64,000 nucleotides of DNA, taken from assembly GCA_016196115.1 (NCBI GenBank), contig JACPYI010000023.1, forward strand, positions 1,348 through 65,347, written 5' to 3'. The stretch's first letter is position 1. Every line of letters begins with the position of its first letter. The translations under genes and the position numbers were made by a program. The stretch comes from Candidatus Sungiibacteriota bacterium. Its GTDB lineage: Bacteria; Patescibacteriota; Minisyncoccia; Sungbacterales; HO2-52-23. Below, piece by piece: positions 52,229-64,000 of the stretch. The notes under the pieces are model-generated. The model was not told the DNA's origin. It saw only the letters and a program-made list of their open reading frames with translations, and made no database searches.

Positions 52229-53401
52229 TTATATTATACACCGCTCAAAACCTTTACGGTACAGCTGGAGGTACTCGCTCTCGCTGTGCGGTTTCATTTC
52301 GGCAAGCGTGTGGCGCGCCGCGTCGGCAAACGCATGGCGTTTTTCCGGGTGCTCGTATAGATCCAGAACCCCAGCAAGAAAGGCATCGCGGTCTCCCATC
52401 GGCACCACGCGGCCATTCACGCCGTCCCGCACTATTTCTCCGGCCAAGCCAACGTCGGTCATCACAAGCGGGACTCCGGCAGCCATTGCTTCCATCGCAA
52501 CCAATCCCCACCCCTCGTAATTCGACGAGATCAGAGATACATCAAAGCACTTGTAGAAAGAGGCAAGATCATTGCGCCACGGTTCGATCACGACGTTTTT
52601 GTTCAGTCCAAACCGCACAACTTTCTTTTGATAATTCGCCTTGTCCGGCCCGTCACCGACCAGGAAAAGAACGGCTGTGGGTTCCTGTTTTACAAAATCA
52701 GCCATCATCTTGATCAACATACTGAAATTTTTCTCTTTATCCACGAATCGTCCCACCGCGATCATCCGAAACGCATATTTTTTGAGACGCGTCAAATCTT
52801 CCGGCTTGGGAAACGAATCGCGGAGCGGTTCGAGATCGGTGAATATCGGCAAGACAAAAATTTTTGATTCCGGAATCCGAAGTTCGGCAACCAATGAGCG
52901 TTTGATCCGCTCGCTTACGACGCGCATGCAATCCGCGCGCGGGAGCAGAAATTGCGCGAGCAGCGCACGAAGATATTCTTTCCGCGAGGCGCGCCCATAC
53001 CGCGGACTCAACACATCAGTATGCACTTGCAATTGCAGCTTTATATTGAAACGGCGGGCAATGCGGTACGCAATCAGCCCGACTTCATCCGGTGCTTGGC
53101 TGGTGATGACGTCGAAACGGACGCGGCTCACAAGCTTCCTTGCTATGCGATACATGCGCCACCGCTGCAGCAACGGATTGCCTGCAGCCGGATAAAGGAA
53201 GAGGCGGCCGTTTTGCTCGTCCGGCGAGCGTGGAGTTTCACCAGAGCAAAAAAGTGATTGGGGTTCTCGTGCTTTGAAACTGGCGGTCATGACTATGATA
53301 TGCAGCTCGTCAAAAAGCTCCGCATAGCGCTTCATGCGTTTGCGCGCGCTGCTTCCGACAACGCAGATATTCGGATCTTGGGCAAGCATTAAAATTTTCA
53401 T
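52229..53401 (-). CDS. Glycosyltransferase family 4
   Basis: MKILMLAQDP; VGRFVDKEKNFSMLI...LISSNYEGWGLVAMEAMAAGVPLVMTDVGLAGEIV. Confidence 0.8.
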   Translation of the reverse strand: MKILMLAQDPNICVVGSSARKRMKRYAELFDELHIIVMTASFKAREPQSLFCSGETPRSPDEQNGRLFLYPAAGNPLLQRWRMYRIARKLVSRVRFDVITSQAPDEVGLIAYRIARRFNIKLQLQVHTDVLSPRYGRASRKEYLRALLAQFLLPRADCMRVVSERIKRSLVAELRIPESKIFVLPIFTDLEPLRDSFPKPEDLTRLKKYAFRMIAVGRFVDKEKNFSMLIKMMADFVKQEPTAVLFLVGDGPDKANYQKKVVRFGLNKNVVIEPWRNDLASFYKCFDVSLISSNYEGWGLVAMEAMAAGVPLVMTDVGLAGEIVRDGVNGRVVPMGDRDAFLAGVLDLYEHPEKRHAFADAARHTLAEMKPHSESEYLQLYRKGFERCII

Positions 53402-55710
53402 GCGTTTTTGAGCAGTGCCGTGATCTCATTCAGCATTCGTTGGGCCGAGAATGATCCTGCTTTTTCCCGCGCGCGCTCTGATAATCTACGGGTAAAATCA
53501 TGATCGTTCAGAAGCCGCATAACTGCAGCTTGCATCTGATTAATATTGTTCCAATCGAAAAACAAACCGGTTTCTCCATCCTGAATGAGCTCGATATTTC
53601 CTCCCGCGCGCGTCGTACAGACCGGAATTCCCAGAGCCATGGCTTCCAGTATAGCATGAGAGAAACCTTCGTATTTTGTATTGAGTATAAATATGTCACC
53701 GGCAATCAGTGATGTGAGAACGTCTTCATGCGATAAACTACCCGCTAACTCAATGACGAAGCCCGGTTCAGGAGCGCGTATTACATCTTCAACATGAACG
53801 GGACCACTACCAATAATTCTTAAACGAATATCGCGATCCGGGACATCTGCTCTTAATTTTTGCACGAGTTCAATCACGGCCTCAAACCCTTTCCACGGCA
53901 CGAGCCGACCGACGGAAATGAGCACAGTTCCCGAAAAACCGAGTTTTTCTCGCGCTTCGTTTTTGGTTAACATCCTGATAGGCGGATCAAAAGCGTTATA
54001 GATTACGGTAATGCGATCCCGGGGAACACCCCACCGCGTCACGACGCCACGCAGATATTCGCTCGGAACCACGATGCTGTCGGCACGACATGCTACCCAT
54101 CGCTCAAGCCGGCGAAGCATTTCCACCTTCCAGTCATATTTTTTCTCCAGAAACTCATCGAGTGGATCCGCAACGCCGAATCGCTGGCTGCCCTGTTCCC
54201 ATGCATAGTCCCCCACGATCTTGAGCACGAATTTTTTGCGGGTCAGCATGGCGGCTAAGGCAGCCGGGGCCCCGACCGAAACGGGATCCTGCGCGAAAAT
54301 AACGTCGGCGGCCAGGCCTCTCCAAAATATGTTCCAGAAATACGCGCCGTGGCGGATCAATTTTGGAAGATGGCGCACGGAACGGAACGGCAACACCGTC
54401 ACGACAAACCCGGATTTGGGCAACTCATCCTGCAGCAGTTTGCTGTACGTCGCGGGACCTCCGATTTCAGGCGGGAAAAGGCCGGTGGCGACAAGAATCC
54501 GGCAAGATAAGACCCGGTCAAAAACTTCTTCGTATTGTCCGGCAATCGAATCCCAAAGAAAGCGCTCGCGGATCATTTTTTTGCCGTTCTCGACGATTGA
54601 CCGGCTTAATCCAGGATCCTGCAGAAGGCGCATGATTTTCTCCGCGGCATCGCCCGGATCGTCAACTTTCGCGAACAACCCTGTTACCCCGTCCGTGATA
54701 ATATCAGGAATCCCGCCGACCCGAGTCCCGATAATGGGAACGCCGGCGGCAAGCGCTTCAACAAAAGAAACCCCCATCCCCTCGGAACGCGAAAGACGGA
54801 TAAAGATTGTTGCCTGATGCAGATGCGCCGGGATTTTTTCGAACGGGACGCTCCCGAAAAATTTGATCTCATGTTCAACCCCAAGCTCTTTGGCAAGAAA
54901 TCCAAGAGCGGACCTGTCCGGCCCGTCTCCGAGAATATGACATTGGAGCGGCTTCCCTTTATTCTTGAGAACGGCTATGGCACGGACAAGGGTATCAATG
55001 CCATTCTTTTCCACCAAGCGCGAGGTAGTGATGATAATTGGGGCATGCTCTATGTCATTCCCGACTTGATCGGGAATCCAGTCAGTACTGATTCTTGATT
55101 CCCGCTTTCGCGGGAATGACAGCAGACCATTTGCGCTTTTGTCGCGAAGACCGAAAAGATCTGCGTTAACTCCATTATGAATAAGTACGCACCGGCCGTG
55201 ATACCCGTATGCAGCCGCAACTTCCCCGAGATACGATGAGATCACGGTTACCTCATCCGCAAGCCAGAGCATCAGCCGGAGCGCCGCGCCGATCATGCCG
55301 AGCCGACCCGATGCAAGGCGGCTATCTCCGTACCCATACTGGATGTTGAGGACAAACGGATGCCGGGGCCGCAGTATTTTACAAAAAAAGGCAGCTACGG
55401 AGCCCTGCGAAATATCAACTCCCCACAGTATCGCCCTACCTTCCCCGCCGATGTTCCGCAGCGCCACAATGCAACCGAAAAACGGCAGGAGCCATTTATC
55501 GAATCCCCGACCAATACCCACCCGAATCACTTTTCCTTCGGGACGGATCTCGCACTTCGGAAGACGCCGGGAGAACCGACTCGTCACGATACGGACGTCA
55601 AAACGCCGGTTCAGCCTCCGACCGATTTCTTGAATCGCGGTTTCCACCCCTCCGACAAACGGATAATACGAGGTCGTGAAAATAATAAGTCTTGTTTTTT
55701 CCATCATCAC
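53398..55710 (-). CDS. Tandem double GT4 glycosyltransferase (two complete GT-B units in one 770-aa polypeptide) with a palindromic-element insertion in the first unit
   Basis: Unit 1: RLIIFTTSYYPFVGGVE...FIRLSRSEGMGVSFVEALAAGVPIIGT. Unit 2: RILVATGLFPPEIGGPA...FILNTKYEGFSHAILEAMALGIPVCTT. Confidence 0.75.
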   Translation of the reverse strand: MMMEKTRLIIFTTSYYPFVGGVETAIQEIGRRLNRRFDVRIVTSRFSRRLPKCEIRPEGKVIRVGIGRGFDKWLLPFFGCIVALRNIGGEGRAILWGVDISQGSVAAFFCKILRPRHPFVLNIQYGYGDSRLASGRLGMIGAALRLMLWLADEVTVISSYLGEVAAAYGYHGRCVLIHNGVNADLFGLRDKSANGLLSFPRKRESRISTDWIPDQVGNDIEHAPIIITTSRLVEKNGIDTLVRAIAVLKNKGKPLQCHILGDGPDRSALGFLAKELGVEHEIKFFGSVPFEKIPAHLHQATIFIRLSRSEGMGVSFVEALAAGVPIIGTRVGGIPDIITDGVTGLFAKVDDPGDAAEKIMRLLQDPGLSRSIVENGKKMIRERFLWDSIAGQYEEVFDRVLSCRILVATGLFPPEIGGPATYSKLLQDELPKSGFVVTVLPFRSVRHLPKLIRHGAYFWNIFWRGLAADVIFAQDPVSVGAPAALAAMLTRKKFVLKIVGDYAWEQGSQRFGVADPLDEFLEKKYDWKVEMLRRLERWVACRADSIVVPSEYLRGVVTRWGVPRDRITVIYNAFDPPIRMLTKNEAREKLGFSGTVLISVGRLVPWKGFEAVIELVQKLRADVPDRDIRLRIIGSGPVHVEDVIRAPEPGFVIELAGSLSHEDVLTSLIAGDIFILNTKYEGFSHAILEAMALGIPVCTTRAGGNIELIQDGETGLFFDWNNINQMQAAVMRLLNDHDFTRRLSERAREKAGSFSAQRMLNEITALLKNA
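55054..55120. repeat. Composite palindromic repeat element (two ATTCCC-N8/9-GGGAAT inverted repeats) embedded in-frame in the GT4 coding sequence
   Basis: gtcATTCCCGActtgaTCGGGAATccag...ATTCCCGCtttcGCGGGAATgac. It is the reverse complement of the element at 63662..63738, with a different central spacer. It encodes ...SFPRKRESRISTDWIPDQVGND... in the gene. Confidence 0.8.
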
Positions 55711-57729: not shown

Positions 57730-57776
57730 ATATCACCACCATAGCATAGTCAATCCGCGGTGGTCAACCATAAATC

Positions 57777-57801
57777 AAAACCCCCCTGATCGGGGGGTTT
57801 T
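57777..57801 (-). terminator. Strong bidirectional rho-independent terminator (10-bp stem AAAACCCCCC/GGGGGGTTTT, loop TGATC)
   Basis: Perfect hairpin flanked by A/T runs, located 32 nt after the stop of the large surface-protein gene. Confidence 0.8.
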
Positions 57802-57832
57802 GACACTCGCTACACAAGGAGATTACGAGACT

Positions 57833-62098: not shown

Positions 62099-62971
62099 CT
62101 ATATATCGAGTTTTTTCAAGTACCGCCGAAATTGTCGGCCAATCTCGCGATGCTTAAGCCCGACCCGCACCACTGCCTTGGCAAACCCGAGTTTTTCACC
62201 GCAGTCATAGAGCACTCCCTCATATTCATAGCCATACATCTCTCCTCCTTGTTTCAGATAGAGCTGGAAGGCGCCGGTCGCAAAAAGCTCTCCTCCGGGA
62301 CCCGGTTTCATAACGGCAAGGAGATCGAGCACCTCCGGAGTATAGATATATTTGCCGCGCGAGACAAGATTGGACGGGGCCTCCTCGATCTTTGGCTTCT
62401 CAATCATATCGGTCACCCTATATGTCCGATTGGAAATCTTCTGTACCCCCACAATACCATATCTTGAGACCATTTTTCTTGGAACCCGGTCAAGAGCAAG
62501 CACGGGTTTTTGATAGGTACCAAAAACATGCATCAATTGTTTCAGACACGGAACTTTAGCGTCAACCACGTCATCTTCGTATAGGACAGCGACCGGCTCG
62601 TCATGTCCGATAAGATGCCGCGCCTGCAACACGGCATGTCCTGGCCCGAGCGGTTCGCTTTCACGGACATACGTAAACCTGGCAAGCGACGAGATGGCGC
62701 GTATGCGGTCTGCAAGTTCGCTTCTCCCCCGATTGCGGAGAAAATACTCAAGCTCCGGAGAATAATCAAAATGGTCCTCTATGGCTCTTTTTCCCCGGCC
62801 TGTCACAAAAATTATGTCAGTGATACCGGAAGCAACCGCTTCTTCGACCAGAAACTGTATGACCGGCTTATCGATCAGAGGCAGCATGGCCTTTGGCTGC
62901 GCTTTGGTGGCAGGAAGGAATCGCGTGCCAAGGCCGGCAACCGGAATAATGACTTTGGTAAGAGGTCTCAT
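62099..62971 (-). CDS. galU: UTP--glucose-1-phosphate uridylyltransferase
   Basis: KVIIPVAGLGTRFLPATKAQPKAMLPLIDKPVIQFLVEEA and VEKP motifs; canonical GalU length. Confidence 0.85.
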   Translation of the reverse strand: MRPLTKVIIPVAGLGTRFLPATKAQPKAMLPLIDKPVIQFLVEEAVASGITDIIFVTGRGKRAIEDHFDYSPELEYFLRNRGRSELADRIRAISSLARFTYVRESEPLGPGHAVLQARHLIGHDEPVAVLYEDDVVDAKVPCLKQLMHVFGTYQKPVLALDRVPRKMVSRYGIVGVQKISNRTYRVTDMIEKPKIEEAPSNLVSRGKYIYTPEVLDLLAVMKPGPGGELFATGAFQLYLKQGGEMYGYEYEGVLYDCGEKLGFAKAVVRVGLKHREIGRQFRRYLKKLDI

Positions 62972-63558
62972 AGTAAGGAGTAACTGGTCCAGCGCTTTCG
63001 GCCGTCTTTTTTGAGAATATTCTTTTGCACCAGATCGTGCAAATCGCGCTGGATGGTTTTGGCGCTTACGCCGGTGAGTAAGGCGTAAAAATCGCTGATT
63101 TTCGCCTGTGACACTTTTTCCACAAACGTAAGTATCTTTTTCTGGCGATCCGTCATACGAGCATCTTCGCCGGCAATACGCAGTTTGGTTTTGTTTCCGG
63201 AAACATCCTGCTCTTGTTCATCATACGAAACATGATTCCCGGTAAGTTCCTGCCTGAAAAAATGTTCAAGAAATTCATACTCGCGCTCAAGAATCGTCAG
63301 ATTGATCGGCCGGACAAACCGCATGGAGCGGCTCACGCGCAAATACCCCTTGATGGTCTCAACCCTGCCAAGTAACGTGAGTGTCTCCTGCTCGTGGCGG
63401 TCGGTATATCCGTATTCAGTCACGCAACCAAAAATCTCATTGGCCTTCTCGCGCAGCTGGCGCTTGAGCGCCTCCCCCTGCGGAAAAAAATCAGTCACGC
63501 GATAGAGCGCCAAGGTCAGCTCAAATGTTTTTCGATGCAATTCTTGCGAGGTCTTCAT
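62968..63558 (-). CDS. Putative transcriptional regulator: N-terminal four-helix-bundle domain plus C-terminal DeoR-type HTH
   Basis: C-terminal ILTFVEKVSQAKISDFYALLTGVSAKTIQRDLHDLVQKNIL (DeoR-like HTH). ATGA overlap with galU. Confidence 0.55.
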   Translation of the reverse strand: MKTSQELHRKTFELTLALYRVTDFFPQGEALKRQLREKANEIFGCVTEYGYTDRHEQETLTLLGRVETIKGYLRVSRSMRFVRPINLTILEREYEFLEHFFRQELTGNHVSYDEQEQDVSGNKTKLRIAGEDARMTDRQKKILTFVEKVSQAKISDFYALLTGVSAKTIQRDLHDLVQKNILKKDGRKRWTSYSLL

Positions 63559-63646
63559 GGTATACTGCTTGTCATACCAATAACTTCCCCGACTGTCAAT
63601 TTTCGTTTTTGCGAATGAGATATAAATTTGTTAAAGTACCCATAAG

Positions 63647-63738
63647 ATTCCCGCTACTTTTGTCATTCCCGCGAAAGCGGGAATCCAGCATGCTCATGGG
63701 GTAGGCAATTCTGGATTCCCGATCAAGTCGGGAATGAC
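63647..63738. repeat. Intergenic composite palindromic repeat element (ATTCCCGC-GAAA-GCGGGAAT and ATTCCCGA-TCAAG-TCGGGAAT) plus an extra ATTCCCGC half-site
   Basis: gtcATTCCCGCgaaaGCGGGAATccag (63662-63688), ctggATTCCCGAtcaagTCGGGAATgac (63711-63738) and attcccgc at 63647-63654. Same element family as 55054..55120. Confidence 0.8.
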
Positions 63739-63750
63739 GGAAAACAAACT

Positions 63751-64000
63751 ATGAAAAAAGAAACTCTGCCGCAAAAACAAAACCGCGCTAAAAATATTTT
63801 TACTCGACTCAAGCGGATATACCCGCAGGCCGGCATGATTCTCCGATTTTCCAACCCGTGGGAGCTTTTGGTCGCCGTGATCCTCTCGGCACAGTGCACC
63901 GACAAAAAAGTGAATGAGGTCACGGAAAAACTTTTCAAAAAATACCGCATGCTCGACGATTACATCCGAGCGTCAGCCAGCGAACGCGCAGAAAAAGAAT
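63751..64000 (+). CDS. nth: Endonuclease III (Nth), N-terminal part; gene continues beyond the window end
   Basis: Translation from ATG 63751: MKKETLPQKQNRAKNIFTRLKRIYPQAGMILRFSNPWELLVAVILSAQCTDKKVNEVTEKLFKKY..., the canonical Nth N-terminus (NPFELL[IV]A.ILSAQ.TD). Confidence 0.7.
   Translation, partial: MKKETLPQKQNRAKNIFTRLKRIYPQAGMILRFSNPWELLVAVILSAQCTDKKVNEVTEKLFKKYRMLDDYIRASASERAEKE

Follow-up and report, generated by a model that had tools for sequence, protein, structure and literature searches.

How a palindromic repeat comes to lie, with the reading frame open, inside the coding sequence (CDS) of a glycosyltransferase is the question raised by a 67-nt segment at 55054..55120 of a 64,000-nt stretch of DNA (the window) from a Candidatus Sungiibacteriota bacterium (contig JACPYI010000023.1). 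The host gene (53398..55710, minus strand) encodes a 770-aa protein of two fused glycosyltransferase family 4 (GT4) units, in which the segment supplies residues 198-219; these lie in the first unit, in the linker that joins its two Rossmann halves. A preliminary description had likened the segment to the dRS3 repeat of Neisseria and to the Rickettsia palindromic elements (RPEs). Comparison with orthologous genes shows it to be a lineage-specific insertion, and its two arms relate it to hairpins that elsewhere flank the genes of small GIY-YIG nucleases, the ssn genes. We consider it probable that what was inserted is a small non-autonomous repeat of two inverted, inward-facing hairpins around a short variable spacer, equivalent to an ssn unit without its gene.

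The insert, its host protein and its second copy

The host protein is 100% identical to the NCBI entry 'glycosyltransferase family 4 protein [Candidatus Sungbacteria bacterium]', and Pfam finds Glyco_transf_4 and Glycos_transf_1 twice each in it, i.e. two complete GT4 units. Its open reading frame (ORF) continues through the segment, which encodes SFPRKRESRISTDWIPDQVGND directly after IHNGVNADLF. The insert of about 22 residues originally proposed at this place is therefore in frame, but the segment as delimited does not fit it exactly, as 67 nt is not divisible by three: 66 nt form the 22 codons (198-219), and base 67 completes the codon of Leu197, as its third position. Only two of the six reading frames of the element lack a stop, both in the orientation of the host gene, which uses one of them. 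The EX7E motifs of both GT4 units and all family-invariant residues are intact. An AlphaFold2 model based on a 118-sequence alignment has a mean predicted local distance difference test (pLDDT) score of 93.2 and a predicted template-modelling (pTM) score of 0.86, and residues 195-220 are its only long stretch with pLDDT <50. They form a coil in the model, leading from the last helix of the N-terminal Rossmann half of unit 1 (189-192) to the first strand of its C-terminal half (225-229). The model shows the element, with frame and catalytic motifs intact, in what is predicted to be a disordered loop of the inter-domain linker of the first unit, in agreement with the linker position first described.

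The segment is absent from all 19 close orthologues (49-75% identity in the alignment) and from all 117 aligned orthologues. Across the 118 sequences the linker from the conserved F186 to the strand PIIITT is mostly 10-17 aa long, against 38 aa in the host protein. Two syntenic loci (L240 and L241), which share with the window the gene order PG_binding giant protein, TPR, PKD, tandem GT4, GT4, have 11 residues at the insert site compared to 37 in the window protein. The choice between ancestral sequence and insertion, which the preliminary description left to an alignment of orthologues, is settled by the absence of the segment from 117 of 117 of them and from both syntenic loci, and a lineage-specific insertion is shown at the level of sequence comparison. 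The simplest in-frame reconstruction would be an insertion of 66 nt, with one terminal base contributed by the target.

The orthologous GT4 gene in one of the syntenic loci, from a related Sungbacteria-like metagenome-assembled genome (L241:10677-10718, GCA_964371935.1), has its own perfect in-frame palindrome, of 42 nt with a 19-bp stem (TCATTCCAGACTTAGTCTC-TAAG-GAGACTAAGTCTGGAATGA), read as the 14 codons IIPDLVSKETKSGM. It sits at another place than the window insert, and is thus a separate hairpin insertion into this gene family. The fusion of two GT4 units (about 750 aa) is itself conserved in Sungbacteria, Giovannonibacteria and other Patescibacteria (the window gene and orthologues P0002-P0120), and three orthologues (P0061, P0098 and P0060) have at the insert position linkers that are likewise unusually long but unrelated in sequence.

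The element in the GT4 gene (copy 1, 55054..55120) reads GTCATTCCCGACTTGATCGGGAATCCAG-TCAGTACTGATT-CTTGATTCCCGCTTTCGCGGGAATGAC. As initially described it contains two perfect inverted repeats, at 55057..55077 and 55098..55117, both with stems of 8 bp, the loops being 5 nt in one and 4 nt in the other; the centre of the first hairpin is 9 nt and not 8, and that of the second is N8. The first hairpin, arm A (55054..55081, plus strand, GTCATTCCCGACTTGATCGGGAATCCAG, 8-bp stem and 5-nt loop), is separated by a 12-nt spacer (55082..55093, TCAGTACTGATT) from arm B (55094..55120, minus strand), of which the minus-strand reading, GTCATTCCCGCGAAAGCGGGAATCAAG, includes the dRS3 pattern ATTCCC-N8-GGGAAT. 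The reported reverse-complement copy in non-coding DNA is likewise found, at 63662..63738 (copy 2, 77 nt), between two divergently oriented genes, one at 62968..63558 (minus) and the HhH-GPD gene that starts at 63751 (plus). Here arm B (63661..63688, plus strand, TGTCATTCCCGCGAAAGCGGGAATCCAG) is followed by a 22-nt spacer (63689..63710) and by arm A (63711..63738, minus strand), of which the minus-strand reading equals arm A of copy 1 and which is separated by 12 nt from the downstream ATG of the HhH-GPD gene. The end modules of the two copies are identical (28/28 and 24/24 nt), whereas the 12-nt spacer of copy 1 is not common to copy 2. Each arm has a GTCA head and a C-A-G tail, and in both copies the arms face inward with the heads at the outer ends. 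The element is bounded by perfect 10-nt terminal inverted repeats, GTCATTCCCG and CGGGAATGAC. The predicted ssDNA (single-stranded DNA) fold of each copy has an energy of -20 to -24 kcal/mol (z-score -5 to -6), and in an alternative predicted fold the arms pair with each other to form one long hairpin.

Copy 2 is by sequence comparison also lineage-specific. In the syntenic locus L241 the HhH-GPD gene and its divergent neighbour are separated by a 43-nt intergenic region in which the element is missing, while the window has the same 43 nt and about 150 extra nt, consisting of the 77-nt element, a half-NTS fragment (GATTCCCGCT, 63646..63655; for NTS see below) and AT-rich sequence; the extra intergenic DNA beside the element, at 63602..63661, is absent from L241. 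Scans for promoters and terminators around copy 2 found nothing, and an Rfam search with the element returned no family. The pattern ATTCCCG-N(4-8)-CGGGAAT occurs at four sites in the window, all in the two copies, against 0.01 expected from shuffles, and an independent scan of the 64 kb for any perfect hairpin found no further member of the ATTCCCG type.

Relation to NTS hairpins and Ssn-type nucleases

Chenal et al. (Nat Commun 2025, PMC11893778) report that about half of the dRS3 repeats of Neisseria belong to a 28-nt oriented hairpin, the Neisseria Transformation Sequence (NTS, CGTCATTCCCGCGMAVGCGGGAATCYRG), which is bound only as ssDNA, and cut a few bases upstream, by SsnA, a 94-aa single-domain GIY-YIG nuclease. 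NTS-like 'SRM' hairpins, described by the pattern HGTCWYN(0-2)YYVSBRHN(0-5)WNVSBRGN(0-2)RNCYNB, flank ssn genes across many phyla, and the NTS-ssn-NTS arrangement is insertion-sequence-like (PMC11893778). The link to dRS3 made in the preliminary description can now be given in these terms, as one arm matches the 28-nt NTS consensus containing dRS3. Arm B of copy 2 (63662..63688) agrees with that consensus at all positions except the first base (T for C), and arm B of copy 1 has one additional mismatch, A for Y near the 3' end. Arm A (centre ACTTGAT) has the head, stem and tail of NTS, and its flanks across 120 sites in other genomes, among the matches listed, are Y at -1 and Y-A at +1/+2, as in NTS. 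The SRM pattern is fitted by one of the four window hairpins, at 63661..63688 (0.2 expected by chance), the sole window site that also fits the NTS consensus except for the first base; neither copy of arm A fits it, nor does the NTS arm of copy 1. These agreements show arm B to be an NTS and arm A a close variant, both within the Ssn-related hairpin family as judged by sequence.

The family extends well beyond the window. An exact-match scan with a 25-mer of arm A, using one genome per species, finds it in at least 119 genome stretches, and among the matches listed are Campylobacterota, Chloroflexota, Bacteroidota, Verrucomicrobiota, Nitrospirota, Planctomycetota, Pseudomonadota and others, with the candidate phyla radiation (CPR/Patescibacteria) accounting for about 30 of the loci. 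An inverted partner hairpin is present at 32 of the 122 listed arm-A sites, giving units of 54-113 nt (67 and 77 nt in the window), and the commonest partner in such paired units is the NTS sequence.

Reading of the flanks reveals that small GIY-YIG ORFs adjoin some related copies, and a profile built from these ORFs was used to seek further ssn-like genes. It identifies six ssn-like ORFs in the fetched genome loci, three of which abut arm A (chance about 0.003). In UBP14 (L234) an NTS, GTCATTCCCGCGAAAGCGGGAATCCAG, is followed after 4 nt by an ATG-started ORF of 95 aa that runs to its stop and, after a further 2 nt, by arm A reversed; in Dehalococcoidaceae (L138) the same two arms, in the same order, surround an ORF with one in-frame stop, and in these two loci the gaps between NTS arm, GIY-YIG ORF and arm A are only 2-18 nt. 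In the third, from Armatimonadota (L169), arm-A-type hairpins lie on both sides of the ssn-like ORF. All three ORFs match Pfam GIY-YIG (PF01541) over their whole length, and in NCBIfam, which has no Ssn-specific model, the ssn-like ORFs have only a weak match, to a group I intron endonuclease family. The window elements have the arm order and orientation of these NTS-ssn-arm A units, with 12 or 22 nt instead of the gene, and the comparison shows this architecture to be common to both. Since arms A and B are found elsewhere on the two sides of a GIY-YIG gene of about 95 aa, arranged and oriented as in the window, the window elements look like a gene-less miniature of the unit, a likeness to the relation between a miniature inverted-repeat transposable element (MITE) and its insertion sequence. 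The spacers of copies 1 and 2 resemble neither one another nor the ends of ssn genes, so that an origin by internal deletion is not demonstrable from them.

Close relatives of the UBP14 nuclease are abundant, 7,983 of 8,000 scored candidates having E <= 1e-10, and they include a protein of Candidatus Paceibacterota. The contig of that protein (L244:10001-12417, GCA_041661265.1) carries two ssn-like GIY-YIG genes 2 kb apart, with a different related hairpin type beside each, indicating that CPR bacteria carry such hairpin-flanked units.

In-frame copies in other proteins and related hairpins

Insertion in frame is not peculiar to the GT4 gene. We estimated its frequency from the DNA loci carrying arm A, where 15 of the 122 listed sites lie inside ORFs that extend at least 50 codons to both sides, and seven of these 15 ORFs are conserved genes according to Pfam (thus at least 7 of the 122 listed sites). 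The products are UvrA in Bacteroidia (L198) and LeuRS in Saccharibacteria (L215), both with more than one hairpin-derived insert, a PMT_2 glycosyltransferase in Saccharibacteria (L223), where a full two-arm unit reads VIPAQAGIQKRNTAWIPDQVGND, a TilS-type PP-loop protein in Fibrobacter (L178), a PrmC-like methyltransferase in Caenarcanales (L207), TatD in Patescibacteria (L175) and MiaA in Collierbacteria (L172); the full unit is present in several of the seven sites. The in-frame share in CPR, 4/30 listed sites against 3/92 elsewhere, is a trend only and not significant (p = 0.06). BLAST against plasmids adds a cultured organism, Sphingopyxis indica MC4, in which plasmid pMC4 has an inverted NTS pair in frame in ileS (L243:2501-2581); the product, the isoleucyl-tRNA ligase WP_317154105.1, contains the pair translated as RHPRESGNPERASADANMDSRFRGND, and RefSeq annotates an intact CDS. 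The earlier analogy with RPEs is thus borne out as a description of behaviour: the window insert is in frame in a surface linker predicted to be disordered, and the same hairpins are found in frame in other conserved genes.

Several further observations concern the hairpins themselves. Loci L121-L239 contain, beside the ATTCCCG type, hairpins with the GTCA head and ATC tail and other stems (GTCATTCTGAAC...AGAATC, GTCATTGCGAGC...GCAATC, GGATCCCCGC...GCGGGGATGAC), and such differing stems with the same head and tail suggest many co-resident specificity classes. In Peribacteria, Paceibacterota and Gammaproteobacteria (L131, L140, L147, L156 and L219) full hairpins are adjoined by short tandem runs of half-arm fragments, GGGAATGAC or GGAATGAC and then about 8-12 variable bases, repeated, which look like decayed or partly copied arms. 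Among IMG/VR contigs, which are putatively viral, the generic pattern GTCATTCCCG-N(4-8)-CGGGAATC has matches in at least 120 stretches (L001-L120), and one contig (L020) holds 13 copies in 13.5 kb; BLAST against curated phage genomes gave a sole match, a single arm in Microcystis phage MaAM05. Within the window a hairpin of another kind lies at 57775-57803, between the gene for the 1297-aa PG_binding protein and the next gene: a perfect, G+C-rich hairpin with a 12-bp stem (TCAAAACCCCCC-TGATC-GGGGGGTTTTGA), overlapped by weak sub-threshold Rfam matches (isrJ, rnk leader), that is probably a bidirectional terminator.

Origin of the element and its implications

If the window copies are gene-less ssn-type units, their arms would extrude as hairpins in ssDNA and be recognised by a cognate Ssn nuclease, whether its gene lies in another part of the genome or the enzyme was provided at an earlier time, and the hairpin pair would spread by nuclease-stimulated copying or repair. 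Only those insertions that fell in an open frame and in a permissive loop of a needed gene would survive selection, and copy 1 may owe its persistence solely to a landing site in an open frame and in a loop able to accommodate 22 additional residues.

A number of points weigh against this reading. The only known activity of SsnA is hydrolytic cleavage of ssDNA, by which it limits or modulates transformation, and neither transposition nor copying has been demonstrated for it (PMC11893778). As the arms are inverted the predicted cuts fall on opposite strands, so that a simple single-strand excision of the IS200 kind does not follow. Arm A lies outside the SRM pattern, and the A-for-Y mismatch in arm B of copy 1 adjoins the base reported to be most critical for SsnA binding. 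Neither copy is flanked by a direct repeat that would be a target-site duplication, and a profile search of the window, the part of this genome covered, found no ssn-like ORF. The boundaries of the insertion are fuzzy (67 nt against 22 codons), the linker being too variable to fix them, and with nearest relatives only 72-75% identical the insertion cannot be dated. The proposal that the element is active, or recently was, in this genome lacks support, as there are two copies only in the 64 kb and no nuclease gene in the window, and the identity of the copies is uninformative on the time of insertion because the arms are near-identical across phyla.

The alternatives fare less well. A host function would be compatible with gene-less units, and it is the least improbable of them, although we think it unlikely: the hairpin pairs would be kept to mark Ssn cut sites on incoming ssDNA and tune recombination around surface or glycan genes, and the two copies would bracket a cell-envelope gene block of about 8.6 kb for that purpose. 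In N. meningitidis clusters of NTS do surround surface genes, and an NTS-gene-NTS arrangement lowers transformation in an SsnA-dependent manner (PMC11893778); the window copies flank the genes for the giant PG_binding protein, for a PKD and a TPR protein and for a nucleotidyl transferase, beside a run of glycosyltransferases. However, L241 has the same block in synteny but neither of the hairpin pairs, the window has two copies only and no ssn gene, and a recombination signal under selection would not be expected inside a coding sequence; of the NTS in Neisseria only 2% are intragenic (PMC11893778). It is distinctly less probable that the element is a REPIN, i.e. an inverted pair of REP hairpins mobilised by RAYT, an IS200/IS605-type Y1 transposase. 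Chenal et al. themselves draw this analogy (PMC11893778), and two short hairpins in inverted order around a variable spacer, foldable as a whole into one long hairpin, have the expected form, but the arms begin with GTCA and not with the usual REP head, they are NTS, for which the partner protein is a GIY-YIG nuclease, and at three loci they flank a GIY-YIG gene and not that of a Y1 transposase.

Still less credence can be given to a conventional, Correia-like MITE derived from an insertion sequence with a DDE transposase. The perfect 10-nt terminal repeats, small size and presence or absence among relatives would suit such an origin; the lack of a target-site duplication at either copy, the failure to see any parent insertion sequence with these ends, and arms that are self-complementary with an orientation-specific flank, typical of sites recognised in ssDNA, all argue against it. 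That there is no element at all, and that an ancestral linker is palindromic by accident or the assembly of a metagenome bin is at fault, is effectively refuted. The source is indeed a metagenome-assembled genome and the linker a variable region, but four perfect hairpins occur where 0.01 are expected, an identical second copy lies 8.5 kb away, the segment is missing from all orthologues, hundreds of assemblies made independently carry the same arms, as does an isolate genome where the CDS is annotated as intact, and a single sequencing read is longer than the 67 nt of the element. We set aside three other identities, those of CRISPR repeat, integron attC site and sequencing adapter, on general grounds, namely the irregular spacing, ends unlike those of attC and the presence of the arms in complete isolate genomes.

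Gene-less hairpin pairs of the Ssn type, the reading we favour, can be placed among known systems. The window arms share with the published NTS and SRM hairpins (PMC11893778) their orientation, the GTCA head, a tail of the C-Y-R-G type and a cross-phylum distribution, and in other genomes arms of the window type flank an ssn-like gene on both sides. They differ in that arm A is outside the published pattern, in that the pair is tight and gene-less, with copy 1 in frame in a CDS, and in the host, as the Patescibacteria are not mentioned in the Ssn paper (PMC11893778). The neisserial intergenic mosaic elements (dRS3-RS-dRS3; Bentley et al. 2007, PMC1797815) likewise have two ATTCCC...GGGAAT repeats around a short variable spacer, and the between-core distances of 20 and 30 nt in the window fall inside their RS range of 19-214 bp (PMC1797815), but the window has two isolated units and not arrays, one of them intragenic and each with one arm that is N9 and not N8, in a host other than Neisseria, outside which the arrays were reported to be unseen (PMC1797815). 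RPEs resemble the window element in behaviour, being palindromic, in frame in unrelated genes and translated where the fold tolerates the peptide, whereas at about 150 bp they are some twice its size and form sequence families of their own. Rickettsia is listed among the SRM-rich genomes (PMC11893778), and RPEs and SRM hairpins may overlap. REPINs, or bacterial interspersed mosaic elements (BIMEs), with their RAYT are also inverted hairpin pairs thought to be recognised in ssDNA by a small enzyme whose gene the repeats flank; the enzyme there is of the HUH/Y1 class instead of GIY-YIG, and the sequence motifs are unrelated.

By its sequence the window element is a well-supported member of the known NTS/SRM family, in the form of an isolated dRS3-RS-dRS3 unit. 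The literature searched was found to contain no description of arm A as a variant, of its fixed pairing with NTS (around ssn genes or without a gene between them), of members of the family in CPR genomes, or of recurrent in-frame insertion in conserved genes; in N. meningitidis only 2% of NTS are intragenic (PMC11893778). The finding joins three literatures that have been treated separately, those of Neisseria dRS3 and mosaic elements, of the 2025 Ssn ssDNA nucleases, and of Rickettsia-type in-frame palindromic insertions, and it reaches into a CPR genome. For those annotating metagenomes it implies that such short insertions in conserved proteins should not be taken for functional motifs or assembly errors. 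We suggest, tentatively, that gene-less Ssn-type hairpin pairs could be pan-bacterial, coding-compatible miniature elements that repeatedly add disordered loops to conserved or essential proteins, perhaps more often in CPR/Patescibacteria, with the RPEs as one local case of an Ssn-linked process. Should Ssn nucleases indeed mobilise gene-less pairs, these would constitute a natural set of paired hairpin and nuclease specificities, and a tractable case of selfish DNA that adds loops to proteins.

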